The notes beneath the pieces are model-generated. The model was not told the DNA's origin. It was given only the letters and a program-made list of their open reading frames with translations, and ran no database searches. The translations under genes and the position numbers were made by a program. Positions 165 through 14,162 of a DNA stretch of 64,000 nucleotides are shown piece after piece; position 1 is the stretch's first letter, and the number at the start of each line of letters is the position of its first letter. This DNA comes from an uncultured bacterium (GTDB taxonomy: Bacteria > Krumholzibacteriota > Krumholzibacteriia > Krumholzibacteriales > Krumholzibacteriaceae). The stretch spans positions 194,285 through 258,284 of the forward strand of contig CAWFAD010000011.1 in assembly GCA_963813815.1 (NCBI GenBank). The letters run 5' to 3'.

Positions 165-2642
165 TTGATCCGAACGCTGCGCACAGCCGCCCTGGCATCG
201 GCGCTTCTGCTCATCGTGCTCGAGTTCCTCGGCATGAGGGATTTCGCCCGTTCCCCGTATACCGGCATCCAGCACAACAACCTCATCGTTCGAGCGATCG
301 ATCTCGACGGTCCCAACCGCGATCTCGGGCTGCGGCTCGGCGACAGGATCGTTCGCGTGAACGGGACGGCGGTCCGGAACGTCAATCACTACGCCTACCT
401 CCTCGCATCGGCCCCTCCCCCCTCGTTTCTCGATCTGACGGTCGCCCGCGGGGATTCCCTATTCGACGTATCCGTTCGGAGCATGGCTCAACCTTCAGTG
501 CGCGTCATGGGCAAGCTCTCGATCGTAATCGTCGCCTTCACGTTCGTTCTCATCGGTTTCGTGGTGCTCTTGAAGCGGCCCGACATCCTGGGCCTGCTCT
601 TCACGGCGAACTGCTACATACTCTCCTTCCTCGTCTCCGAGCGCCCCGTGACTGGTTCGCCGCTCCTGCAGATCATCGGCGAGCTCGGGTACGACTTTCT
701 CTTCATATCCCTGCCCGCCTTCTTCCTCCACTTCTTCCTCCTCTTTCCGGGGCGCGAGATCGAGCGGGGAACGCGCCGCGCGCTGCTCGCGAGGTTTCTC
801 TACGCACCGGTCGCGATCCTCTCCCTTCTCACCCTCGTCGCGGCGCTGAGACAATACGACGCGCCGGGGGATGCCTCGCTCGGGGGGTTCATCAACGCGA
901 TCAACGCGCTCGCCGTGTGCGTCTGGCTCGGTTACATCACGGCGAGCCTCGCCCTTTTCGTCCGGACCTATTTTCTATCGGAGAGGGTGCAGCGGATCAA
1001 GTTCCGCGTCGTCCTGCTCGGGGTGGCGGCGGGAATCGTCCCCCTCACCGTGCTCATGCTCCTCAAGCAGTTTCAGCCGTCGATGGCCGTTCCCGCGCCT
1101 TATCTCTGGCCCCTCTTTCTCTCCTTCATGCCGATCTCCTTCGCCTACGCCATTCTCAAGCACCGGGCCTACGATCTCGGACTGCTGTACCGCACGATCT
1201 TCGTCTACGCGCTCCTTCTCGCGTTCGTCCTCGGGGTGTATTTCGTCTCGGTGAACGTGCTCGGCGAAGAAATGGACCGCAGGTTCGGCGTGCCGCGCTC
1301 CGCGGTCACGGTGTTCGTCATCGTGCTGCTCGCCGTCGCCGTCATGCCGGCGCGCGCCGTATTCCAGCGGCTCGCGGACCGTCTCACGGCGGGCCGGCGC
1401 GCCGCGGCCACGAACGAGATCGTCGCCTTTTCGCGGCGGATCCAGTTCCTCCTCTCTCTCGAGGAGGTATCGTCCTTCGTCGCCGAACGGATGGCCGATA
1501 TCGCGCAAGCGGAGCATGCGTACCTATTTCTCAGGGGAGAAACGGGGGACTACGCCCTTCGGGCGAGCGCTCCAGCCGGAATGCGCACACCCCTCACGTC
1601 CTTCCCGCCCGGCACCGCCCTCATCAAGCTCATGCAGCAGGAGCGGGTTCCCGTCATGCTCGAGTACTTCGACAGGCTCTGGCTCAAGAGCAATCTCGAC
1701 CGGATATCGCGCGAGCTCGTTTCGCTCTCGCAGGCCTACGCGGCCGTGCCCCTTATCGAGCAGGATGAGCTTCTGGGATTCGTGCTCATGGGCCGAAAAA
1801 GCTCGGGAAGGCCCTATACGGGAGCCGACGCGGAGCTTCTCGAGCTTCTGGCCGAACGGAGCGCCGTCTCCATTATGAACATCAGGCTCTGCGGCGACTC
1901 GATCATCAAGGATCGTCTCGAGAAGGAGCTCCGTCTCGCGAGCGAGATACAGACCCGCCTGCTGCCCTCGCGGTTCCCGTCGCTTCGCGGAGCCGAAATC
2001 GCGGCAAAGCTCGTGACGAGCCACGAGGTCGGCGGCGATTTCTACGATTTCGTCGAGCCGGAGCCGGGGGTCGTGGGCATCGCCGTGGCGGACGTCTCGG
2101 GAAAGGGCATCCCGGCCGCGCTCCTTATGACGACGCTCCAGGCCTCATTCCGCGCCGAGGCCGTGAAGAATCCGGCCCCCGCGGTGATCGTTTCCGCCCT
2201 CAACGCCTCCCTCTACGAGCGGAGCGACGACGAGAAGTTCGCCACCTTCTTCTACGCCCTCTACGATGACGCGACCGGCATCGTGCGCTTCTCCAACGCG
2301 GGCTCATCCCCCCCGTTCATCATATCGGGCGAGGGACGCATCTCGCGCCTGCACCGGGGAGGCGTCCTCATCGGCGTCGAGGCGCGGAGCGATTACAGCG
2401 AGGGCGTCGTAAAGCTCCGGCAGAACGATCTCATGCTGATCTTCACCGACGGCTGCACGGATCAGGAAAGCGCGGATGGGGAGCCGTTCGAGGAGAAGAG
2501 ACTGGTTGATTTTATCAGAAATAACTTAACGCTCTCAGTCGATGCGATGATTGAGAAGTTATTTGCCACGCTCATTGCATTTGGGGAAAGGAATTTGAAA
2601 GATGATATGACTGTCGTTCTTCTTCGCAGAATCCTTCCTTGA
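165..2642 (+). CDS. Membrane sensor PP2C/SpoIIE (RsbU-like) phosphatase: PDZ + multi-TM + GAF + SpoIIE
   Basis: PDZ-like GLRLGDRIVRVNG, many hydrophobic helices, GAF motif AVPLIEQDELLGFVLMG, and SpoIIE motifs VGGDFYD, ADVSGKG, FTDG, DDMT. Confidence 0.9.
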   Translation: MIRTLRTAALASALLLIVLEFLGMRDFARSPYTGIQHNNLIVRAIDLDGPNRDLGLRLGDRIVRVNGTAVRNVNHYAYLLASAPPPSFLDLTVARGDSLFDVSVRSMAQPSVRVMGKLSIVIVAFTFVLIGFVVLLKRPDILGLLFTANCYILSFLVSERPVTGSPLLQIIGELGYDFLFISLPAFFLHFFLLFPGREIERGTRRALLARFLYAPVAILSLLTLVAALRQYDAPGDASLGGFINAINALAVCVWLGYITASLALFVRTYFLSERVQRIKFRVVLLGVAAGIVPLTVLMLLKQFQPSMAVPAPYLWPLFLSFMPISFAYAILKHRAYDLGLLYRTIFVYALLLAFVLGVYFVSVNVLGEEMDRRFGVPRSAVTVFVIVLLAVAVMPARAVFQRLADRLTAGRRAAATNEIVAFSRRIQFLLSLEEVSSFVAERMADIAQAEHAYLFLRGETGDYALRASAPAGMRTPLTSFPPGTALIKLMQQERVPVMLEYFDRLWLKSNLDRISRELVSLSQAYAAVPLIEQDELLGFVLMGRKSSGRPYTGADAELLELLAERSAVSIMNIRLCGDSIIKDRLEKELRLASEIQTRLLPSRFPSLRGAEIAAKLVTSHEVGGDFYDFVEPEPGVVGIAVADVSGKGIPAALLMTTLQASFRAEAVKNPAPAVIVSALNASLYERSDDEKFATFFYALYDDATGIVRFSNAGSSPPFIISGEGRISRLHRGGVLIGVEARSDYSEGVVKLRQNDLMLIFTDGCTDQESADGEPFEEKRLVDFIRNNLTLSVDAMIEKLFATLIAFGERNLKDDMTVVLLRRILP

Positions 2643-2720
2643 TTCATAGGCCCTCCGGCAAAGTATATTTCCTTATTATGGCGTAAGATACCCAATCGTG
2701 CCCCGCTCGGGCCAAACTGA

Positions 2721-2735
2721 GGCATGGCGTATGCT
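2721..2735 (+). promoter_or_regulatory. Candidate sigma54 (-24/-12) promoter
   Basis: GGCATG-GCGT-ATGCT has exact GG-N10-GC spacing and is close to consensus TGGCAYG-N4-TTGCW. Confidence 0.4.
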
Positions 2736-2816
2736 ATTTCAAGTGTTGCGAGACCCGCGATGCAGTTTCTCGCGGTTCTCGAGGGCAGTATGAGACCCGT
2801 TCAGGGGGTGGTTGTC

Positions 2817-2867
2817 ATGATGATTTCCTGGCTTTGGATCATTGACCTCCTGTGGTGGTTGCGCTGA
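2817..2867 (+). CDS. Candidate 16-aa Trp-rich hydrophobic micropeptide MMISWLWIIDLLWWLR (25 aa if started at in-frame ATG 2790)
   Basis: SD-like AGGGGGTG (2803-2810) lies 6 nt before the ATG; flanked by a hairpin at 2749-2781 and a terminator-like hairpin at 2897-2947. Confidence 0.4.
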   Translation: MMISWLWIIDLLWWLR

Positions 2868-2896
2868 CCCGGATAAACAGCGCTCTGTCCGCTCTA

Positions 2897-2955
2897 AAAT
2901 AAATGTTCCCGTTGATACCAGTAATGCATCGGCGGGAACATTTATTTCCCCTTTT
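2897..2955 (+). terminator. Intrinsic terminator-like hairpin
   Basis: AAATAAATGTTCCCGTTGAT pairs with ATCGGCGGGAACATTTATTT (20 bp, two G-U pairs on the + strand), followed by CCCCTTTT. Confidence 0.65.
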
Positions 2956-3063
2956 GTCACGCTATTCCAATTCTTTAATGTTGTTTGTCACCATAGTTCT
3001 CTTAGCTCTTGCTAGGTAATAGCTTACGAATTGATAATATTTTAGTAATATTGCATTTTCCCC

Positions 3064-3091
3064 TTGACACTCCGCGGCGGTTCTCTATAAT
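3064..3091 (+). promoter_or_regulatory. Consensus sigma70 promoter
   Basis: TTGACA (3064-3069), 16-nt spacer, TATAAT (3086-3091), with an AT-rich upstream region. Confidence 0.8.
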
Positions 3092-3096
3092 TGGCG

Positions 3097-3240
3097 CAAC
3101 GAGACAAAGAGCGTCTGACTATGCGGTCGTGATCCGTCTGCTCTCAAGCCTATCTTTGAAGCGAAGCGATCTTGCTGCTCAGGCCTCTGAAGGGTGCGAA
3201 GGACACGTCAGGCAAGGTAGTTGACTTCTCTGTCTCGTTG
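3097..3240 (+). ncRNA. Candidate rod-shaped structured ncRNA (family unassigned; 6S/SsrS possible)
   Basis: 5' CAACGAGACA pairs perfectly with 3' TGTCTCGTTG, and nested imperfect helices continue inward. It starts at the expected +1 of the promoter, is followed by a terminator and has no credible ORF. Confidence 0.65.
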
Positions 3241-3295
3241 AAAAAAAAGGGAATTGTTCGGCGTTAGTCGTCGAGCAATTCCCTTCGTTATTTTT
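3241..3295. terminator. Probably bidirectional intrinsic terminator
   Basis: 17-bp stem 3247-3263/3269-3285 with A8 before it (the U-tract for the convergent receptor gene) and TTATTTTT after it. Confidence 0.75.
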
Positions 3296-3328
3296 GAGCC
3301 ACCGAGACGAGCTGCGCTGGATCTCTCT

Positions 3329-5401
3329 CTAGTATCTGTAAGAAACCCCCAACCAAAAGATTCTGCCCTGTGCCGGATATCCGCTCTCCGGTTCGTAGTT
3401 TTCATCGAGCAGGTTGCTCACGGTTAGATACGTCTCCCATTTTGACAGGAAGGGCTGCGAGAACTTGGCGCCGAAAACGACGTACCCCTCGTTCTTGACA
3501 ACCTCCGTCTCCGGATCGACCGCGGTCGGCAGCTGGCTGTAGGAGTCCCCGTATTTCGCCATGGTCAGCGCTATGCGCGAGCCGAGCGTCGGCGCCGTAT
3601 ATTCGAGCTTCGCATCAAGCTTGTATTCCGGCACATCGGTGACATTTTCCGTCGCCCGGCCGGGGCTGACGTCCTCGGCGTCGATGTACGTGAAACCGAC
3701 GTTCATGGACAGGCACTTCACGGGATCGATACCCGCGTTCACTTCAAGCCCCAGCATCTCGATCTCGGCGACGTTATAGTAGAGCTCGTCGGGTGAGGGG
3801 AAATCGCGGCTGATGCGATCCGATATGTCATGATAGAAAGGCGACACCTCGAAGCGCAGCATTCTGCTCACGACCATCGAAATGCCGGCCGTATAGTTTA
3901 TGCTTCTCTCCGACTCGAGATCTATATTGCCTGATGATCCGAATAATTCGCTGAGCGTGGGGAAACGGTTCTTTTTGGCGACGGACGCGAAGAGCCTCGT
4001 CCTGTCGTTCAAGAGAAAGCTCGCCCCTATCATCGGATTGATCTCGGTCATTGTTTCAGGTGTCTCCGCGGCGACCTGTTGCACGAGATTTCCGTCATCG
4101 TCGGTTTCGTTCGTTTCCGCTTCCTTGACGTCGAACCAGTCGTAACCGACGCCCGCCACAACGGAGAGTTTCGAATCGAGAAGTATCAGCTCATCCTCGA
4201 GGCCCAGCGAACCCGTATAGGACGCGCTCTTTTCAAAGGGCAGGTATGCGTCGTCGCGCTGCTCATGACTATCGAGCCTGAAGTTGACGGCGCCCCTGAG
4301 GACGTTCCAGCCGGAAAGGGTGTAATCACCGATCGCCATTCCGCCCGCGATGTAGTCCTGATACCGGCTCGTGGCCATCGCGGTATCGAAGCTCGCATCG
4401 GAGTAGGAAACATAGTCGTCAACGTGGTTATGATAAAAGAGCTTGCCCATCAGGCCGAATGCGCGGGCCAGCTTTTTCCTTCCGCTGAGGTCGGCGCCCC
4501 AGTTGTCGTATCTCTCTATTCTGTCGAACGAAGAAAAGGCGGGCCGGTCGGGAAATATCTTCACCAAATCGATGTTCGGCGGGTCGCCCTTTTCCGAGGC
4601 GGAATAGTGCAGGTTCAAGAAATACTCGGCGTCCTCCGAGGGCTCGAGACCGAGCTTCACATAGATATTATCGGCCCTGAAATCGGAATTGTTGCGCAGG
4701 CCGCCGTCTTCAATGACGGTATCGACCCTCTCCGCCAATCTCCCCGCGCCCGTTTGCACCACGCCGATTCGGGGCGTGAAATCATCAGAGAGCCTCCATC
4801 CATCCCATTCCCGGTGCATGTAGGAAATCCAGTAGCTCAGACTCCCCTGCTTCATCCCATGCGACAGATAAGCCGATGCGGCGCCGTCCCGTCCGCCCTC
4901 GAGCTTTCCCGAAAAGGTCGCCCTATCGGCGGCCTTCTTCGTAATGATGTTTATGACCCCCGCTTCGGCGTTTGCGCCATAGAGCACCGATGCCGCTCCT
5001 TTGATCACGTCTATCCGCGCCACATTCTCTATCGAGAGCTGATTCATATCGAACTTGCCGTATTTCGTCTCGTAGTAGGGCACGCCGTCGATGAGAATGA
5101 GCGCCTTATCCTGAGAAAAGCCGTGTATCGAAATGCTGGCTTCCATCTTTCTTCCCATCGTCACCTGGACGCCGGGAATATATTGCAGGGCCTCCGCCAC
5201 GGTGCGGCTGTTCGTCGCGGAAATATCCTCGGCCGTTATCTCAGTATTGATCGCGATGTTTTTGACGCCCGCCCTCTCGGCTAGAACCAATATCTCGCCG
5301 AGTGTGTATGTCTTATAGTCTTCCTCGGCCCGCAGGGCGCCCGGAACAATGGACGATCCGAGGATCATCATCATGAATAGAGCTCGTGCCGGTTTCCTCA
5401 C
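3329..5401 (-). CDS. TonB-dependent outer-membrane receptor (BtuB/CirA-like)
   Basis: Signal peptide, plug motifs (LILIDGVP, IDVIKGAASVLYG..AGVINIITKK) and C-terminal NLLDENY...GRIFWLGVSYRY. Confidence 0.92.
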   Translation of the reverse strand: MRKPARALFMMMILGSSIVPGALRAEEDYKTYTLGEILVLAERAGVKNIAINTEITAEDISATNSRTVAEALQYIPGVQVTMGRKMEASISIHGFSQDKALILIDGVPYYETKYGKFDMNQLSIENVARIDVIKGAASVLYGANAEAGVINIITKKAADRATFSGKLEGGRDGAASAYLSHGMKQGSLSYWISYMHREWDGWRLSDDFTPRIGVVQTGAGRLAERVDTVIEDGGLRNNSDFRADNIYVKLGLEPSEDAEYFLNLHYSASEKGDPPNIDLVKIFPDRPAFSSFDRIERYDNWGADLSGRKKLARAFGLMGKLFYHNHVDDYVSYSDASFDTAMATSRYQDYIAGGMAIGDYTLSGWNVLRGAVNFRLDSHEQRDDAYLPFEKSASYTGSLGLEDELILLDSKLSVVAGVGYDWFDVKEAETNETDDDGNLVQQVAAETPETMTEINPMIGASFLLNDRTRLFASVAKKNRFPTLSELFGSSGNIDLESERSINYTAGISMVVSRMLRFEVSPFYHDISDRISRDFPSPDELYYNVAEIEMLGLEVNAGIDPVKCLSMNVGFTYIDAEDVSPGRATENVTDVPEYKLDAKLEYTAPTLGSRIALTMAKYGDSYSQLPTAVDPETEVVKNEGYVVFGAKFSQPFLSKWETYLTVSNLLDENYEPESGYPAQGRIFWLGVSYRY

Positions 5402-5423
5402 AGCTTGCGTACTCCTTTGCTCC

Positions 5424-6174
5424 TCAGCGCCCTGGACCCGAGGGCGCGGCGCCCCCGCACACGCCGCACCCCCGCCTTTTCTCGAACGTCACCGTCTCGA
5501 ACGCCATCGTATCGGCGCGGAAGATCAGGAGAGCGTTCGCGTCGGGAATCTCGCCGGTCATCAGGTACCGCAGCGCCAGCGTCGTCTGAAGAGATCCGAC
5601 CGCGGCCGCCAGCGCGCCGAACGCCGGCGTGGGCTCGGGGTTTCTCAGCTCCCCGGGCATGAGACAGGCGAGACAGGCGGTTTTCGGCGGATTGAAGAAG
5701 CTCAGCTGCCCCATCCATTCTCGTATCGCCCCGTATACATAAGGGATATTGAGATCGAATGACGCCTTGTTCAGCTTCAAACGGTCGGCGTGATTGTCGA
5801 GGCCGTCGACTATCAGGTCGCATCCCGAGGCCAGCTCGCCGGCGTTGGTCTCGGTCAGCGCGTCCGAGTACGGCCTCAATTTCTATTTCTGGATTCTGCG
5901 CCGAGAGTCTCTTCGCCGCCAGAATCGCCTTGGGCTTGCCGATATCCGCATCCGTGTACAGGATCTGGCGATTCAGGTTGGACAGCTCGACCTTGTCGCC
6001 GTCGCAGATGCGCAGATACCCGACTCCGGCCTCGGCGAGATAGGTCGCACTGACCCCGCCCAATCCTCCGACTCCGACCACCAGAACCCGCGCGCGCTTG
6101 AGCCTCTCCTGATCCCAGCCTTCGACCATGAGTTGACGTTGGTACCTCTCGATTTCGAGTTTCGATAGCGGCAT
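5424..6174 (-). CDS. HesA/MoeB/ThiF-family adenylyltransferase (one frameshift near 5875)
   Basis: RYQRQ, GVGGLG and DKVELSNLNRQ in one frame; DGLDN, CLAC and the C-terminal CGVC in the next frame. Confidence 0.88.
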
Positions 6175-6187
6175 GGGAGAAATATCC

Positions 6188-6427
6188 TCAGCCGCCGGAA
6201 ACGGGCGGCTGGAGGGTAATGGTCTGGCCGTCGGACGGCTTGTACGACAGGTCCTTCATCTTGCCGTCGACATGAATGAGCGCGACGAAGGCGGGATTGA
6301 GCGAAATGTGCTCGAGGATTTCACCGATCGTCTTCTCGCCCTCGATCTCGACCTTGCGGGTGTAGTGGTCGACGTCGGGTTTAATCATCGCGCGAAGCTG
6401 GCCGCCGGCTCTCAGGAAGATCGTCAT
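6188..6427 (-). CDS. MoaD/ThiS-family sulfur carrier protein
   Basis: 79 aa, ends in PPVSGG, lies between the AOR and MoeB-like genes. Confidence 0.88.
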   Translation of the reverse strand: MTIFLRAGGQLRAMIKPDVDHYTRKVEIEGEKTIGEILEHISLNPAFVALIHVDGKMKDLSYKPSDGQTITLQPPVSGG

Positions 6428-6445
6428 AGCTCATTCCATCCTCTG

Positions 6446-8385
6446 CTAGAACGCCTTCGGTTTGTACCGTTCGCCGCGGACCGCCGGAATGCCGTTCGGA
6501 AGCGGCTTTCCCAGGAGCCCGATCTTTTCGATATTATCCGCCGCGAAATCGAGCTTCAAATCGTGCAGCACCTCGCGGCTGGGATTGCCGTCGTTGTCCC
6601 ATCCACGGCAGGCGTAGTATTCATCGAGCATCGTCTCGATCTGCTCCTTGGACAGCCCCTTGCCGGCGTTCGGGCCGGTCGGAATCTTGTCTTCCCAGGA
6701 TCGCGCCGGCGGGTAATCGAACGTGCGGCCGTTCGCCCGGTTGCGTTCGAGGTAATGGCATCGCACCAGATTCCAGATCTTCTCCGAGGTCTTGAACGCC
6801 TCGGCGGAATCGATATTCCACCCGGTAATGTGGTTGAGCGACTCGACGATCTCCTCCGGCTCAATATCGAGCTCGCCCCAGAAGAGGCGGCAGATGCACC
6901 AGCAGTCGAAGAGCGGCCGGATATGCTGCAGGTAGACCACCACCTTGGCGCGTCCCTCGATCTTTTCGCGCCCCTCGGCCATGTCGACCGTGATGGTCCA
7001 CGCGCGGTTGTGATGAGCGCCGATGTCGCAGGTCATGTACGAAAGCATCATCCCCGGAGCGTAGCGACCGTCGTACCCCGACATCTCCTGACCCTTGACC
7101 TGCATGGCGAATTTCTCGCTGCCCCGTCCGATTTTCTCCGCGGCCCGCTTGGTGCCGCCCGCGAAATACTCGCCGATCCCGCGGCGATGCACGATCATGT
7201 CGACGAAGTGTTCGGCGTCCTCCACCGAACCCCAGTTGAGCGTATGCCCTTCGAGATCGTCGGTGGTTATCAGCCCGCGCTGAAAGCACTCCATGCCGAA
7301 CGCCACCACGCCGCCGCCCGACATGGTGTCCATGCCGACATTGTCCATCAGCCAGTTCAGATAGGCGACCTGGTTGATGTCGGTCATGCCGAGGTTCGAG
7401 CCGCACAGCGCGCCGGTCTCGTATTCGGGGCCCTCGAGATAGACCGTTTCTTTGCCCGGCAGGACCGCCTTGGTGTACTTGCCGCAGTTCATCCAGCATC
7501 CGAAACAGGCCTTGTGCGTGATGAGGCACTTCTCCACCAGCGCGTCGCCGTCGATGCCCTTGACATCCTCGAAATACGTGGTCTGGAAATTCCGCGTCGG
7601 AAGGACTGCATTTTTGTTGGACCAGTCGATGAAGAAGGCGGTGCCGTACTTCTGCCACGGAGCCATGTTGGGATGAGTCTGCGTCCGTTTGATGATGGCC
7701 GACACATGTTCGGTCAGCTTGTCGAGATCGTGCACCTTGATTCCCCTGGTGCCCCTGACGGCGATCGCCTTGAGCTTCTTCGAGCCCATGACCGCGCCCT
7801 GCCCGGTCCGTCCCGCCTGGCGGCCGTAATCGTGCGTGATACACGAGAAGCGAATGCCGTTCTCGCCGGCCGGTCCGATGGTGGCGATCTCGAAATCCTC
7901 GCCCAGGTCCTTTTTCATCGCCGGTTCGCATTCGAGCGATCCCATGCCCCAGTATTTCGAGGCGTCGCGAAGCTCGACCTTGTCGTCGTCGATGAAGAGA
8001 TAGATCGGCTTTGGGGAGATGCCGGACATAGATCACCATATCGTAGCCGGCGAACTTGAGGGTCGGGCCCAGATGGCCGCCCATATTGGAATCGCCGTGG
8101 CCGTTGGTCAGGGGGGAAATCGAGCCGAAGCCGACTTTGGCGCCCGCCGGGATAAAGCAGCCGCTCATGACTCCCGGCGCTCATGATGAAGAGATTCTCC
8201 GGCCCCAGCGGATCGGCGTCGCGGGGAACCTCGTCGTAGAGAATTTTGGCGACGACGCCTCGTCCTCCGAACCATTCGCGCATCAGCTTCTCATCGGTGG
8301 GATGTCTCTTGATCTCGCCGGTGGTGAGATTGATGCGCAGCGTCGTGCCGGCCAGTCCGTTGGAGCTCGCGGATCGTCTTGCCAT
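6446..8385 (-). CDS. Aldehyde:ferredoxin oxidoreductase family (W/Mo-pterin) catalytic subunit; frameshifts near 8170 and 8030
   Basis: LRINLT, GGRG, SPLT..DSNMGG, IGPAGEN, GAVMGSKKLKAI, GPEYET and YY..RGWD..GNP motifs spread over three ORF pieces. Confidence 0.92.
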
Positions 8386-8807
8386 TACTTGCTCTCCTTT
8401 GCCGGTCTGGTATGAACATGGTGATCGCGCCGGTGTTGCACAGATCGGTGCATTTGAAGCAGTTGTCGCAGATGATGACGTGATCGAGGTCGCGATGCTG
8501 AAATATCACGCCCGGCTTGCAGGCCGGAATACAGTCGCCGCAATTGGTGCATTTCTCGAAGTCCACGATATAGGCGCCGTCGTCGCGACGGTAGATCGCA
8601 CCCTCCGGGCAGACCTCCATGCACTTGCCGCACTGCGTGCAGACCTTCGGCTTGTATACCCCCGGCTGCGGGAAAAGTGCCTCGATTCTCAAGGCGGCCT
8701 TTTTGGGATTGATTTCGTCGTAATGGGCTGATTGCGCAGATTTGCAGGCACAGGCGGCACCCGCTGCACTTGCCCGACGTTACTTTGATTCTCTTTCGTT
8801 CCATCAT
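8385..8807 (-). CDS. 4Fe-4S dicluster ferredoxin subunit (AorA-like); frameshifted
   Basis: CSGCRLC...C, CTQCGKC...CP, CTNCGDC...C and CDNC..C...C cysteine motifs. Confidence 0.88.
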   Translation of the reverse strand: MMERKRIKVTSGKCSGCRLCLQICAISPLRRNQSQKGRLENRGTFPAAGGIQAEGLHAVRQVHGGLPGGCDLPSRRRRLYRGLREMHQLRRLYSGLQAGRDISASRPRSRHHLRQLLQMHRSVQHRRDHHVHTRPAKESK

Positions 8808-8841
8808 GCTCTCGAATGCGCGCGAGCCCGGAGTCCGCGGC

Positions 8842-9440
8842 TCACGCCGGCTTGCGCAGCGGGATAAGGGGCCGGATGGCGTTACCGAGATAATATCCGA
8901 GATGTATCGTCACCATCGAGATGAGCGACGCGGCGACCGCGTCGGTGAGAAGGTACGATCGAATTTCCGCCCAACCGTCCGTGCCCCAGGTTCCGTCGCG
9001 GAGAACGAACGCGGCCAGAATCGCGAAGATCGCATACGATACGTAGACGATGACCGGCGCGGCTAGGGTCCTCTGCAACGCGCTGCAATCAAGGCGTCCT
9101 TTGAACGTCGAGTAGGCGATATCGAAAACGATCCCGTTGATCATCACCGCGGCGACCTGGCAGGGAAAGAAATTGTCTGGAGGCGGTCTTGAACAGGCCG
9201 GCGATGATCGCCATGATGACGACCGAGCCGGGGAAATGGACCACGCGCTTGGATGCGTAAAGGATAATGATGCCGAGCCCGTAGAGCAGGGCCGATTTGT
9301 GCTCCACCCCCACGGCGCGCAAAGCGTCCCGTCCGAAAAGCTCCAGCATGCCGAATACCGCCCCGAACATGAGCACGAACAGGAGCTTCCTCAAGGCCTG
9401 CCGCGGCGCCTCGAGCGCCCGCATCTTTATTGTCCGGCAC
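8842..9440 (-). CDS. Six-TM membrane protein resembling an ECF transporter S component; frameshifted
   Basis: Joining ORFs 9089-9424 and 8842-9147 gives about 195 aa with six hydrophobic helices and PGS..MAIIAGL / GIVFDI motifs. SD GGAGG precedes GTG 9440. Confidence 0.55.
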
Positions 9441-9487
9441 TCGCCACCTCCGAAAATCGACCGTCAGAGCTCAAGCCAATTGTCGCA

Positions 9488-9515
9488 ATAATAGCACAAT
9501 CTCCCTTTGCGTAAA
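9488..9515 (-). promoter_or_regulatory. Candidate sigma70 promoter of the AOR cassette
   Basis: TTTACG-N16-TATTAT with an extended TG, about 45 nt upstream of the first gene. Confidence 0.4.
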
Positions 9516-9559
9516 GAAAAATTAAGCTATGTCTTACAAGGGGATCAGCCGGATCGATA

Positions 9560-11851
9560 TCAGCGAAGCAAAATCATTTTCTTCGCGAACGTCCGTTTGC
9601 CGACGGTGAGCCGGTAGAAATAAACCCCCGACGACGCCGTCCTCCCGTCGCCGTCCCGACCGTCCCACTCGATCAGGTGATGCCCCGCGCCAACCGGCTC
9701 GTCGACGAGGCGAGCCACGAGACGCCCCCCGATGTCGTACACATCAAGGCGCACATGATCGCGAGCCTCGATAGCAAATCCGATCGAAGTCCGGGGATTG
9801 AACGGGTTCGGAACGTTTTGATCGAGCGCGAGCCGCGCGGCGAGGGTTCGCACCGTCATCTCGGTCGAGCGGATCTCCCGCCCGTCCGACGTCACGGCCG
9901 CGATGACGTAGAGGTAGTCCCGCCCGGGCTCGATCGAGCGGTCGTCGTAGCTTCGCGCCTGCGGAAGAAGGAGGACGGATGTGATGCACGAAAATTCTTC
10001 CCCGGGCGTCGAGCGATAAATCCGAAAACCGTCGAGCGCCTCGTCCGCGAACGTCTCCCAGCGAAGCGCCACGACGCCATCCATCGCATCCGCCGCGACC
10101 GTGGCGAAGGCGACGGCAACGGGAATGTACTCTCCGAATTGCAGACCGAGACTGCTCCCGTTCCCCGCGGACAAACCGACGAAGTCCTCATTCGGCACGG
10201 AAACTGCGAGCTCGCCGGATGCGCTCCTTCCCCATGCCACGATGGTGCCGTCAGCTTTAAGACCGATACTGTGGTACGATCCCGCGGAGATTGCGGCGAA
10301 ATTATTATTCGGCCAAGGAACGCTGCATTGACCCACGGCATTATCGCCCCATGCCACGATTGTGCCATCACGCTTGAGCCCGAGGCTATGATTCGCCCCG
10401 CCAGAAACGGAAACAAAATTCGCGTTCGGACCGGGAACGTCGCACTGACCGTAATCGTTGCGCCCCCAAGCCGCGATGGTGCCGCCACTCCTCAAGCCCA
10501 GGCTGTGAGAGAGGCCCGCGGAAATCGCCACGAAACCCTCGTTCGGCAACGGAATTGTGCACTGACCATCGTAATTCAATCCCCAGGCCACAATCGTGCC
10601 ATCGGACTTTAAGCCCAAGCAGTGATAGACGCCCGCGCCAACCGCCACGAAACCCTCGTTCGGCAACGGGACCTCGCACTGATGATAGTAACTATTCCCC
10701 CATACCCGAATTTTGCCGTCAGACCCAAGACCCATGCTGATTTCCGATCCGCAGTCAACCGCGACGTACCACGCCGTCCCGCCGCTCAGCGGCCAAGGGA
10801 CGTTGCATTCGCCATTGGGATTGTCGCCCCAGGCGATGAGCCTGCCGTCGTACTTGAGACCCAAAAAGTGGTAAGTCCCGCACGCAACCGCTCTGAAACC
10901 CTCGTTCGGCGCGGGAACATTGCACTGACCATAGTCATTGAGCCCCCAGCACACGACGGAGCCGCTCGATTTGAGTCCGAGGCAATGAGCATCTCCTCCT
11001 GAGATCGCGATGAAATTCTCATTCGGCTCAGGAACGCTGCACTGGCCGTAGGCATTGTAGCCCCAGGCCACAATTACGCCGTCGGACCTTAAGGCCATGC
11101 AGTGAAGGGCGCCCGCGGAAATCGCCACGAATTTCTCGTTCGGCGCGGGAACGTCGCACTCGCCGTAAGTGTTGCTTCCCCACACCACAATCGTCCCATC
11201 CGACTTGAGACCCATGCTGAAATGTCCGCCCGCGGCAATCGCTACGAAATTCTCGTTCGGCAACGGGACCGTGCATTGACCATAATAAGTTTCTCCCCAC
11301 GCCACAATCGTCCCATCCGACTTGAGACCAAGGCTGTGCCACGATCCCCCGTCAATCGCTACAAAATCCTCGTTCGGCAACGGGGCCGTGCATTGACCAT
11401 AATAATTTTCTCCCCATCCCACAATCGTCCCATCCGACTTGAGACCCAGGCTGTGAAAAAAGCCCGTAGAAACCGCAACAAAATTCTCGTTCGGCGCAGG
11501 AACGTCGCACTGGCCGTAATAGTTGCTTCCCCACGCCACAATCGTCCCATCCAACTTGAGACCCAGATTGTGCCTACTGCCCGCGGCGATCGTCGCAAAA
11601 TCTTCGCCCGGCAACGGGGCGGTGCATAAGCTGCGCATTCCCCACCCCACAAGCGATCCGTCGGATTTGAAACAGATGCTGTGAGATCCGCCGGCGGCGA
11701 TCGCCGTTATCCCTTCGAGAGCCGATTGCTCCACCGCAATACGACGACCCCAGCCGACGATACCCCCTCCGACCTGAGCGAATGCGCCGCCGATGCCGAG
11801 CATGGAAACCGAGACAACGACCAAGCCCAAGAAAACGCATTTCGATCTCAT
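9560..11851 (-). CDS. Secreted RCC1/BLIP-II repeat beta-propeller protein with C-terminal FlgD-Ig sorting domain
   Basis: SD GAGGTGG, signal peptide, 14 repeats of about 39 aa (KSDGTIVAWGxNxYGQCxVPxPNExFVAIxAGxxHSLGL), an FnIII-like segment, then QNVPNPFNP...SGVYFYRL...KMILLR. Confidence 0.88.
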   Translation of the reverse strand: MRSKCVFLGLVVVSVSMLGIGGAFAQVGGGIVGWGRRIAVEQSALEGITAIAAGGSHSICFKSDGSLVGWGMRSLCTAPLPGEDFATIAAGSRHNLGLKLDGTIVAWGSNYYGQCDVPAPNENFVAVSTGFFHSLGLKSDGTIVGWGENYYGQCTAPLPNEDFVAIDGGSWHSLGLKSDGTIVAWGETYYGQCTVPLPNENFVAIAAGGHFSMGLKSDGTIVVWGSNTYGECDVPAPNEKFVAISAGALHCMALRSDGVIVAWGYNAYGQCSVPEPNENFIAISGGDAHCLGLKSSGSVVCWGLNDYGQCNVPAPNEGFRAVACGTYHFLGLKYDGRLIAWGDNPNGECNVPWPLSGGTAWYVAVDCGSEISMGLGSDGKIRVWGNSYYHQCEVPLPNEGFVAVGAGVYHCLGLKSDGTIVAWGLNYDGQCTIPLPNEGFVAISAGLSHSLGLRSGGTIAAWGRNDYGQCDVPGPNANFVSVSGGANHSLGLKRDGTIVAWGDNAVGQCSVPWPNNNFAAISAGSYHSIGLKADGTIVAWGRSASGELAVSVPNEDFVGLSAGNGSSLGLQFGEYIPVAVAFATVAADAMDGVVALRWETFADEALDGFRIYRSTPGEEFSCITSVLLLPQARSYDDRSIEPGRDYLYVIAAVTSDGREIRSTEMTVRTLAARLALDQNVPNPFNPRTSIGFAIEARDHVRLDVYDIGGRLVARLVDEPVGAGHHLIEWDGRDGDGRTASSGVYFYRLTVGKRTFAKKMILLR
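10150..11760 (-). repeat. Intragenic tandem repeat of about 117 bp (RCC1-like blades)
   Basis: Recurring CCACAATCGTCCCATCCGACTTGAGACC and CTCGTTCGGC blocks at 117-nt spacing. Confidence 0.9.
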
Positions 11852-12088
11852 CTTTACCACCTCTTTGTCCCCATCGCCGCCGAATGGCTGCAAATCAGGG
11901 TCGCGCCGGCGCAAAACGGCCGAAGCGAAACGTCTCCCTCGCAATAATTATTTGATTGAGCAACCCGTAGTTAGTTTATCAGATTCGGCGCAGATTATCA
12001 ATCTATAACGCCGCATGAGAAGGACGACGCCAATAGCACTCCGAAGACGAGGTGGCCCCCGCCAAAGACGGGCAAGCGATTGAAAAAA

Positions 12089-12165
12089 TGGTGCCCCCGA
12101 GACGATTCGAACGTCCGACAAACGGTTTAGGAAACCGCTGCTCTATCCATCTGAGCTACGGGGGC
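12089..12165 (-). tRNA. tRNA-Arg(CCT)
   Basis: Cloverleaf GCCCCCG...CGGGGGC-A-CCA, anticodon loop TT-CCT-AA, T-loop GTTCGAATC. Confidence 0.96.
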
Positions 12166-12209: not shown

Positions 12210-12728
12210 CTAGAACCGGAGCAGGCTCCAGACGCTCCGCCCCGGAAGATTCTTCCTGCCCTCGAGAGCCGCGAGCTCGATCACGAACGCGAGCTCCTCG
12301 ACGACCCCTCCCTGGCGCTCGATGAGACGCGCCGCGGCCGCCGCGGTTCCGCCCGTCGCCAGCAAATCGTCGACGATGAGGACCCGCTCTCCGGCGGAGA
12401 TCGCGTCGACGTGCATTTCGATCGTCGCGTCGCCGTACTCCAGGGCGTACGTCTCCGCTATCGTCCGCCAGGGGAGCTTTCCCGCCTTGCGGAGCGGAAC
12501 GAGCCCCATCCCCAGCCGGTACGCGAGAGGCGCGGCGAATATGAAGCCCCTCGATTCCATCGCGGCGATCTTGTCTATCCGGCGGCCCCTGAAGCGATCG
12601 TGCAGCTCGTCGCAGATCCGCTGGAAGGCTCCGGGATCGAGGAGTGCCGGAGTTATGTCCTTGAAGACGATCCCCGGTTTCGGGAAATCCGGCACATCCC
12701 GTATGTAGCGATCGAGCGGTTCGGGCAC
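12210..12728 (-). CDS. apt: Adenine phosphoribosyltransferase
   Basis: DFPKPGIVFKDIT, ESRGF, RKAGKLP, LEYG and VDDLLATGGT; SD AAGGAG before GTG. Confidence 0.96.
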   Translation of the reverse strand: MPEPLDRYIRDVPDFPKPGIVFKDITPALLDPGAFQRICDELHDRFRGRRIDKIAAMESRGFIFAAPLAYRLGMGLVPLRKAGKLPWRTIAETYALEYGDATIEMHVDAISAGERVLIVDDLLATGGTAAAAARLIERQGGVVEELAFVIELAALEGRKNLPGRSVWSLLRF

Positions 12729-12730
12729 CG

Positions 12731-13576
12731 TCACTCCTTTCGGCCGGGCTTCGATCTCCGGCCGCTGGTCAGCAGAAGCCTCAGCTTTCGCAACGCGCGC
12801 AGCTCGAGCTTGCGGACCCGCTCGCGCGAGACGTGAACCAGGGCCCCCGTCTCGGCGAGGGTATGCGGCTCTCCGTCGTAGAGGCCGTACCTGATTCTCA
12901 GTATGAGCCGCTCGCGGTCGGAGAGGCGTTCGAGAAGCTTCTCGAGATTCTCCGACTCTATCTGGCGCAGAACGACCTGCTCCGGCCCGTCGAATTGCCC
13001 TTCCGCGGCGGGGGCGGAGCGCGAGAACTGTTCGTACGCGTCGAGGCTGCTCGCCAGATCGAGCGCCCGGATGTTCCCCACGAGCCTCTCGAGCATCCGG
13101 TACCGCTTGAGCGAAATATTGAGCTTCCCGGCCCGCTCGCTCTCCGAGAGGCGCTCGATCCCCGGCTCCTGCTCGAGCGCTATGTAGCGCATCGTCAGAT
13201 GAAACACGTGGATCGGTATGCGGATCGTGCGCGACTGCTCCGCTATCGCCCGCACGATCGACTGCCGGATCCACCAGGAGGCATAGGTGCTGAAACGGAA
13301 CCCCCTGTCCGGATCGAAACGGCTCACGGCCTTGATGAGCCCGAGATTTCCCTCCTCGACGAGGTCGAGGAGCGGCATTCCCGAGGAGGAATACCCGCGC
13401 GCTATGGCGATCACGAGCCTCAGGTTCGCGAGAATGAGGCGCTTGCGCGCCTCGGCGTCCCCTTCGCGCGCGGCGCGCGCCAGCGCGAACTCCTCCGGGG
13501 CCGTGAGCAGCGGATAGCGCCCGATATCGGCGAGGTACCGCTGCTCGAGGCTGCCGCTCTCCCCATTCGCCGTCAT
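12731..13576 (-). CDS. Group 2 sigma70 factor (RpoS-like)
   Basis: ANLRLV, DLVEEGNLGL, FSTYASWWIRQ and SRERVR; lacks region 1.1; surE-pcm-M23-sigma synteny. Confidence 0.92.
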   Translation of the reverse strand: MTANGESGSLEQRYLADIGRYPLLTAPEEFALARAAREGDAEARKRLILANLRLVIAIARGYSSSGMPLLDLVEEGNLGLIKAVSRFDPDRGFRFSTYASWWIRQSIVRAIAEQSRTIRIPIHVFHLTMRYIALEQEPGIERLSESERAGKLNISLKRYRMLERLVGNIRALDLASSLDAYEQFSRSAPAAEGQFDGPEQVVLRQIESENLEKLLERLSDRERLILRIRYGLYDGEPHTLAETGALVHVSRERVRKLELRALRKLRLLLTSGRRSKPGRKE

Positions 13577-13586
13577 GCACCTATTA

Positions 13587-14162
13587 TTACGGCGAATGAG
13601 TCGCCGAATCAAGGCAAAGGTGCGGCGACGGATCGATTGCGCGCCCCAGATGCCGGACCTCGAAATGGAGATGGACCCCGCTCGCCCTTCCCCGCTTCCC
13701 CGCCCGGCCGATTCTCTCCCCCGCCGATATCCCCTGTCCCGCGCGCACCGTGAGGTACGATAGATGCGCATAGAGGGTCGAAACGCCGTCCGGATGATCG
13801 ATGATCACGGCGGTGCCGTATCCGCGCCGCCGTCCGGCGAAGCGAACCGTTCCTGCGCAGGCGGCGTATATTGCCTCACCCCGCTCCGCGTCGATATCCA
13901 CGCCCTCGTGCGGCCGCCCTCCGCCTCCGGAGGATCGCGGCCGGTATCCGAAGCCGCTCACGATCCTATCGCACCGCCAGCCCTTGACGGGAGGGCTCAG
14001 GGCTATGGAGATCGCCCGAGCCGAATCGCCTGCCGTCGCCCGCGCGGCCGCTGCGCCGCTCTCCGGCATTGCGCGGCCCCCGGGGCGATACTTCGGCGCG
14101 CTCGCGCACGAGAGGGCGCACGCGAGAGCCGCCGCCAGCGCGGCGGCCGCTCCGAGGCGCAT
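13587..14162 (-). CDS. M23 family peptidase lipoprotein (NlpD-like, no LysM)
   Basis: Lipobox ALSC; HEGVDI, YAHL and HLHFEVR motifs. Confidence 0.9.
   Translation of the reverse strand: MRLGAAAALAAALACALSCASAPKYRPGGRAMPESGAAAARATAGDSARAISIALSPPVKGWRCDRIVSGFGYRPRSSGGGGRPHEGVDIDAERGEAIYAACAGTVRFAGRRRGYGTAVIIDHPDGVSTLYAHLSYLTVRAGQGISAGERIGRAGKRGRASGVHLHFEVRHLGRAIDPSPHLCLDSATHSP

Follow-up and report, generated by a model that had tools for sequence, protein, structure and literature searches.

A rod-shaped, uncatalogued RNA family of Krumholzibacteriota with a conserved core and a probable protein-binding role

Between positions 3064 and 3295, the window (the whole 64,000-nt stretch of DNA analysed, from an uncultured member of the Krumholzibacteriota) carries what is very probably a real RNA gene. 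Its outer helices covary among homologues, which have also conserved the promoter and terminator along with the rod. The family to which the RNA belongs has not been catalogued; in broad terms its kind is known. No Rfam match was obtained at the window RNA (E up to 10) or in seven homologous loci, and a literature search on RNAs of Krumholzibacteria/Krumholzibacteriota or Latescibacter, which covered titles and main texts of freely available papers, gave no description. On balance we favour a reading in which this single-copy, phylum-restricted, structured RNA, whose transcription probably starts at a sigma-70 promoter of its own, offers a protein a folded decoy or docking site instead of base-pairing with mRNAs.

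Promoter, rod and terminator

The original prediction had described a consensus promoter, a 144-nt rod and a terminator, and all three were found, at 3064–3091, 3097–3240 and 3247–3295, respectively. The sigma-70-type promoter (TTGACA-N16-TATAAT, plus strand) matches the consensus at 12 of 12 positions and predicts A3098 as the transcription start; it is one of six sites in the 2.53-Mb genome that match this consensus perfectly. An AT-rich stretch (~2950–3063, 32% GC) precedes it, with TTTGTCA and TGATAA motifs that are conserved in family f1. The stretch may serve as an UP element or as the binding site of a regulator, in some copies one that resembles a Fur box.

The RNA body (3097–3240, plus strand) is closed by a 10-bp stem, in which the 5′ end CAACGAGACA (3097–3106) is fully complementary to the 3′ end (3231–3240), and the 144 nt fold into an unbranched rod (−52.6 kcal/mol). 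Comparison with shuffled sequences did not set the single-sequence fold of the window copy apart from chance (z −1.59; 15 of 200 shuffles were equally good), but it did so for the 42 homologues taken together (mean z −2.6, with z below −2 in 32 of them). Behind the rod, a bidirectional intrinsic terminator was computed at 3241–3295, made up of an A8 run (3241–3248), a 17-bp hairpin (3247–3285) and a U-rich tail, which would give a primary transcript of ~195 nt at the window locus. On the opposite strand, the A8 run supplies the U8 tail of the convergent minus-strand gene. The hairpin had been taken as a sign of plus-strand transcription. It is real and indeed more stable on the plus than on the minus strand (−26.7 versus −17.4 kcal/mol), but because it is bidirectional and serves the convergent transcript as well, it is by itself weak evidence of strand. 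No plus-strand gene lies downstream, as had been stated; the first gene met there, for a TonB receptor, is on the minus strand and ends at 3329. In families f6, f7 and f9 a U-tract directly follows the closing stem in 19 of 19 copies, which puts the functional 3′ boundary at the end of the rod.

A plus-strand structured RNA is further supported by the homologues. In an alignment of 42 sequences that had been fitted to a model, 93.3% of cells are paired, 29 of 40 pairs have changed on both sides, none of 500 shuffles reaches this and slid controls give 35–50%. An unfitted alignment gives 94.5% paired cells, with changes on both sides in 9 of 37 pairs, a level reached by 5 of 500 shuffles. For both alignments, the controls are inflated by related sequences. 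G-U cells far outnumber A-C cells (225 versus 28), which favours the plus strand, and the plus strand folds better in 35 of the 42 homologues. Covariation, the strand-specific G-U wobble and the promoter are all kept across seven families. The innermost pairs are mostly invariant and so are unproven by covariation. A promoter of the type TTGACA-N16-TAYA[AC]T is present, with a variable spacer, in 26 of the 27 family loci; phylum-wide, TTGAC lies upstream of all 42 aligned copies, and the full promoter is matched in 40. Conservation, covariation and a promoter kept despite a freely varying spacer thus back the earlier claim that the RNA has a gene to itself and represents a family not described before. 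No ORF is common to the 42 homologues.

Distribution and genomic setting

By BLAST (E up to 0.1), the RNA was matched in 28 of the 36 genomes of the window's own family, and 27 of 30 fetched loci, including that of the window, strongly match the rod; the titled records with copies at 107–152 bits belong to the Krumholzibacteriota. Across 151 genomes of the phylum, a first model (R1) matched 51 and a second model (R2) matched 65, always with one copy each. By family, R2 found the RNA in 25 of 32 genomes of f1, the one genome of f2, 15 of 17 in f6, all 10 in f7, 8 of 9 in f9 and 5 of 61 in f4, and it gave no matches in f3 (0/6), f5 (0/5) and f8 (0/9). Three diverged f3 copies were nevertheless recovered at the syntenic site, all of them missed by R2, and in two f3 genomes of genus g19 the RNA is cleanly absent from that site. 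An f4 query matched 5 of 81 f4 genomes below E 1e-6. Judging from these genomes, the RNA family is old, patchy and dispensable, the last because it is missing at the syntenic site in the two f3 genomes and was not found in f5, f8 and most of f4.

Within the genome of the window no second copy was detected (the next nhmmer match has E 0.98), and searches of 50,697 phage and 72,556 plasmid records gave no match to the RNA. A loose pattern scan of a genome collection returned at least 120 loci, 80 of which were screened with R1; three proved real, and one more was found in the part of the remainder that was screened. The same kind of scan gave 118 metagenome loci (80 screened, four real, all of the known type) and four matches in viral contigs, none of which was real. 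In five genomes reached through unrelated pattern-matched loci (KSB1, Calditrichaeota, WOR-3, Gemmatimonadaceae and one unclassified) the RNA was found in none, which is a weak test, and absence outside the phylum has to be read in the light of the limited sensitivity of R2, given the three true f3 copies that it misses.

The RNA gene tracks tRNA-Arg(CCT), its usual convergent neighbour, which ends a surE-pcm-nlpD-rpoS-like-apt block (these gene names are readings of the translations, except for a sigma-70 Pfam match on a homologue). At the window locus this tRNA gene (12089–12165, minus strand) is displaced by an insert of ~8.8 kb (3296–12088) that lies at the 3′ end of the tRNA gene and has a GC content of 59%, compared with 63–66% in the flanks. 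A degenerate att-like repeat (3298–3310) matches the tRNA end at 12 of 13 positions. The genes of the insert encode a TonB receptor, ThiF, a ThiS-like protein, an aldehyde ferredoxin oxidoreductase, a ferredoxin-like protein and a repeat-rich secreted protein. Those for ThiF, the aldehyde oxidoreductase, the ferredoxin-like protein and, beyond the insert, the sigma factor/apt region appear to be split across frames (5398–6174, 6446–8385, 8291–8807 and 12210–13771), possibly through assembly indels. The flank upstream of the RNA holds a membrane phosphatase with PDZ-TM-GAF-SpoIIE architecture (165–2642, plus strand).

The conserved core and its relation to 6S RNA

The outer stems vary in sequence and keep their pairing. 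They lead to a bulged-A helix, CGUG-A-UC (3128–3134) paired with GACACG (3202–3207), which encloses the conserved core (3128–3207, plus strand); the core also holds a covarying helix and an internal loop (3146–3188, plus strand) that is compatible with a C-loop. Here, A3146-U3188 and G3148-C3184 close the long strand C3185-U3186-C3187 and the free base A3147, the three-dimensional form being a prediction. The exact C-loop pattern is found in 32 of the 42 homologues, the free base varying between A, U, G and C. The definition of C-loops, and their description as protein-binding motifs, are taken from PMC9516175. The C-loop-bearing RNAs treated there (rRNA, a bacterial mRNA and viroids) resemble the present RNA in that two Watson-Crick pairs enclose a long strand of 3 nt, with C as its first base, and a short-strand base that is free and variable; this likeness is that of a local motif, which neither assigns the RNA to a family nor points to a partner.

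Further towards the tip (3151–3181, plus strand), the alignment places an asymmetric loop, with an A/U-rich 5′ strand (3151–3160) and a 3-nt 3′ strand (3179–3181), below an apical hairpin of the form GCG-AA-GCG / UGC-YGC (3161–3178). This near-invariant AA-bulged hairpin is present in 38 of the 42 copies and replaced in the four f4 copies. In the diverged f3 copies (L223, L224 and L210), the loop beneath the tip has strands of 7–11 nt on either side by eye, and by that measure these are the most bubble-like members of the family. Two other ideas, that GCGAAGC forms a mini-hairpin at the DNA level and that the RNA mimics a tRNA anticodon, were dropped, as the variants in f3, f4, f6 and f9 do not keep either.

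Of the 35 most conserved columns of the 42 homologues, 29 lie in pairs, and no conserved stretch without pairing is longer than 2 nt. The conserved bases sit in helices, in the C-loop-compatible loop and in the AA-bulged tip and form no single-stranded seed, which makes protein binding the likeliest mode. As we picture it, the promoter would drive high, constitutive transcription from ~3098, the pairing of the 5′ and 3′ ends would protect the RNA, and the variable outer stems would form a scaffold presenting the conserved core (3128–3207); a protein reading the shape of this core would then be titrated. The strong expression assumed in the original prediction is likewise a deduction from the promoter.

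No co-occurring partner emerged among those tested. CsrB/RsmZ sponges and bacterial Y RNAs are likewise standalone, protein-titrating RNAs, the former marked by repeated GGA hairpin loops and the partner CsrA, the latter by the partner Ro60/TROVE. Unlike the sponges, the present RNA has 0–3 GGA per copy and CsrA is missing in many of its carriers: this protein, to which PMC13443453 had led us as a candidate, was not found in f6 (0/17), f9 (0/9) or the window's own genus (0/9), groups in which the RNA occurs. Unlike a Y RNA, it has no Rfam match, and no Ro60/TROVE protein was found in its own genome (91% complete). The RpoS-like sigma factor and the upstream phosphatase both persist in genomes that lack the RNA and were rejected as strict partners. 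RNA polymerase is the likeliest single candidate, although taken alone it is an unlikely one; a protein of translation or RNA turnover is the alternative. The natural losses of the RNA, in f3 genus g19 and in most of f4, offer a comparative handle on the partner.

The original prediction had considered a divergent short 6S RNA standing in for the canonical one. This was not supported: a canonical 6S gene (83 bits) lies 36 kb away, and the RNA has no central bubble. A large SRP RNA (on contig C7), tmRNA and RNase P RNA are also encoded elsewhere in the genome, and an identity with any of these four was rejected. The SRP motif had been noted as absent, and the SRP models (RF00169/RF01854) gave no match at the window RNA. 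With 6S (SsrS, RF00013) it shares the unbranched rod and the paired 5′/3′ ends. It differs in length (122–148 nt versus 174–187 nt for 6S), in having no 3′ central-bubble strand and a 6-bp inner arm in place of a long internal stem with a −35-like region, and in two further features, a loop of C-loop type situated below the junction and a promoter of its own next to tRNA-Arg, the canonical 6S being a separate gene. All five genomes checked with a phylum-specific 6S model, each a carrier of the RNA, have a true 6S. Judged by such comparisons, the RNA is not a 6S member. True 6S RNAs at G061:C1:638297-638472, G049:C4:193693-193869 and G066:C3:291561-291740 are missed by RF00013 and score 87–118 bits with the phylum-specific model. 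In genomes with both genes on one contig (at G000:C11, 161550 versus 197380), the RNA and 6S genes are 20–70 kb apart, and 10 of the 12 genomes compared have them on the same strand; this may be only conserved gene order.

A more distant relationship is conceivable and, as one form of protein binding, would fall within our preferred reading: a 6S paralogue or analogue that retains the closing arm together with the 5′ strand of the bubble, no longer has the −35 arm and has RNA polymerase as its partner. We hold this as doubtful. The true 6S RNAs of the phylum contain the same short bulged-A motif in their closing stem (the homology to 6S is not significant), followed by GCC and an unpaired, AAC-led strand; in both RNAs GCC pairs with GGY and opens into an A/U-rich unpaired 5′ strand, at a similar spacing (5′ spacer mostly 13–14 nt in the RNA and 15–18 nt in 6S). 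This three-part pattern, defined post hoc, occurs at three sites in the genome, namely 6S, the RNA and one other, and with weight matrices trained on 6S alone 9 of 42 RNA copies beat 100 of 100 shuffles. However, the window copy scores 9.7 bits with these matrices, below 303 background peaks, and copies of f6, f7 and f9 do not score. With the phylum-specific 6S model, 8 of 23 loci reach just 3–7 bits (E about 1–9), less than unrelated hairpins do; the profile-profile score of RNA against 6S falls within that of shuffles, HMM comparison gave no match, and in the reverse direction R1 did not match the genome's own 6S. The corresponding loop is also small, with a 3′ strand of 3–4 nt and a 5′ strand of 4–12 nt in 38 copies, against 12–15 nt and a fixed 14 nt, respectively, in 33 true 6S RNAs.

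As to function, PMC8876501 describes a truncated B. subtilis 6S-1 RNA without the −35 arm that still works and cycles in vitro with ~10-fold lower affinity; for E. coli 6S it reports that cutting the apical stem abolishes binding. Since truncated 6S-1 cycles in vitro, and since RNA polymerase-binding RNAs other than 6S exist (PMC11077062), we retain a 6S-like mode of action as a minor possibility. Two of the latter, Ms1 and CoRP, are likewise lineage-restricted, structured and standalone and provide a precedent for the proposed mode; they come from a different phylum and have no Rfam similarity with the present RNA, for which polymerase binding is a proposal. In its most specific form, which is equally tentative, the RNA could be a natural minimal polymerase decoy derived from 6S, in which the downstream-duplex arm and template strand were kept and the −35 arm gave way to the C-loop and AA-bulged tip, and which would titrate polymerase unlike canonical 6S across much of the phylum. 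Should RNA polymerase be the partner, the RNA would put to a natural test the need for the −35 arm and the full bubble of 6S, which in the work described in PMC8876501 has so far been probed with engineered truncations only. With another partner, it would be one more lineage-specific structured RNA, useful but unsurprising. In any case, an uncultured lineage gains a well-delimited RNA family of phylum-wide occurrence, whose core (~80 nt) is small enough for in vitro work.

Other readings and the upstream peptide

Outside protein binding, the RNA could be an sRNA that acts in trans by base pairing, its tip or CU-rich strands (CUCUC, CCUCU) opening to block the ribosome-binding sites of mRNAs. 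Its size, its own promoter and its own terminator are what one expects of an sRNA, pairing of the invariant CCUCU with GGAGG is conceivable, and the tip hairpin could melt into a seed. We nevertheless think this improbable: the conserved bases are paired, with no conserved unpaired run beyond the 2 nt given above, and complements of 11–16 nt in the window's own genome show no excess over shuffles.

Much less probable still is that there is no functional RNA at all and that the locus is a DNA-level element, a MITE or a decayed leader that has persisted next to a tRNA integration site. The chance-level fold of the window copy, the position next to tRNA-Arg(CCT), which is an insertion site here, and the losses in several lineages would agree with it. 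Against it stand the single copy per genome, where a MITE would be expected as dispersed copies, the lack of matches in the phage and plasmid records, and the covariation, strand-specific wobble and promoter retained across the seven families.

A last reading concerns the peptide unit upstream (2720–2947, plus strand), which is not part of the RNA gene and comprises a sigma-54-type motif (2720–2735), an ORF of 15 or 16 codons (2817/2820–2867) ending in IIDLLWWLR and a terminator of its own (2897–2947). Such an ORF lies 220–420 nt upstream of the RNA in 38 of 42 loci, which could suggest that the RNA is an antitoxin or regulator of the peptide in a pair resembling type I toxin-antitoxin systems; this is largely refuted and very unlikely indeed, since the best duplex of the RNA with the peptide mRNA is better than the mean of the shuffles in just 17 of 37 loci, at no consistent site, the peptide motif is present in 129 of 151 genomes (including f4 57/61 and f8 8/9), mostly without the RNA, the two genes are ~160 kb apart in two f4 genomes and on other contigs elsewhere in f4, and two f3 genomes have kept the peptide and lack the RNA. 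An apparent joint loss of the tip hairpin and the peptide in f4 likewise proved wrong, the peptide being present there and unlinked.

The peptide itself is an unannotated, Trp-rich product of 15 residues with the C-terminal motif IDL(L/F)WW(L/M)(R/K), for which a reversed control gave 11 genomes; a literature search for the motif brought up nothing relevant. The strict sigma-54-type motif is found in 24 of 38 loci, most of the others having, by eye, a variant of the GGAAC type. The peptide follows the phosphatase and not the RNA: it lies directly behind the phosphatase gene wherever coordinates were compared, in one genus the phosphatase gene has been relocated beyond the RNA, and in f5 both peptide and phosphatase are missing (0/5). 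The peptide may be a regulator or ligand of the phosphatase.
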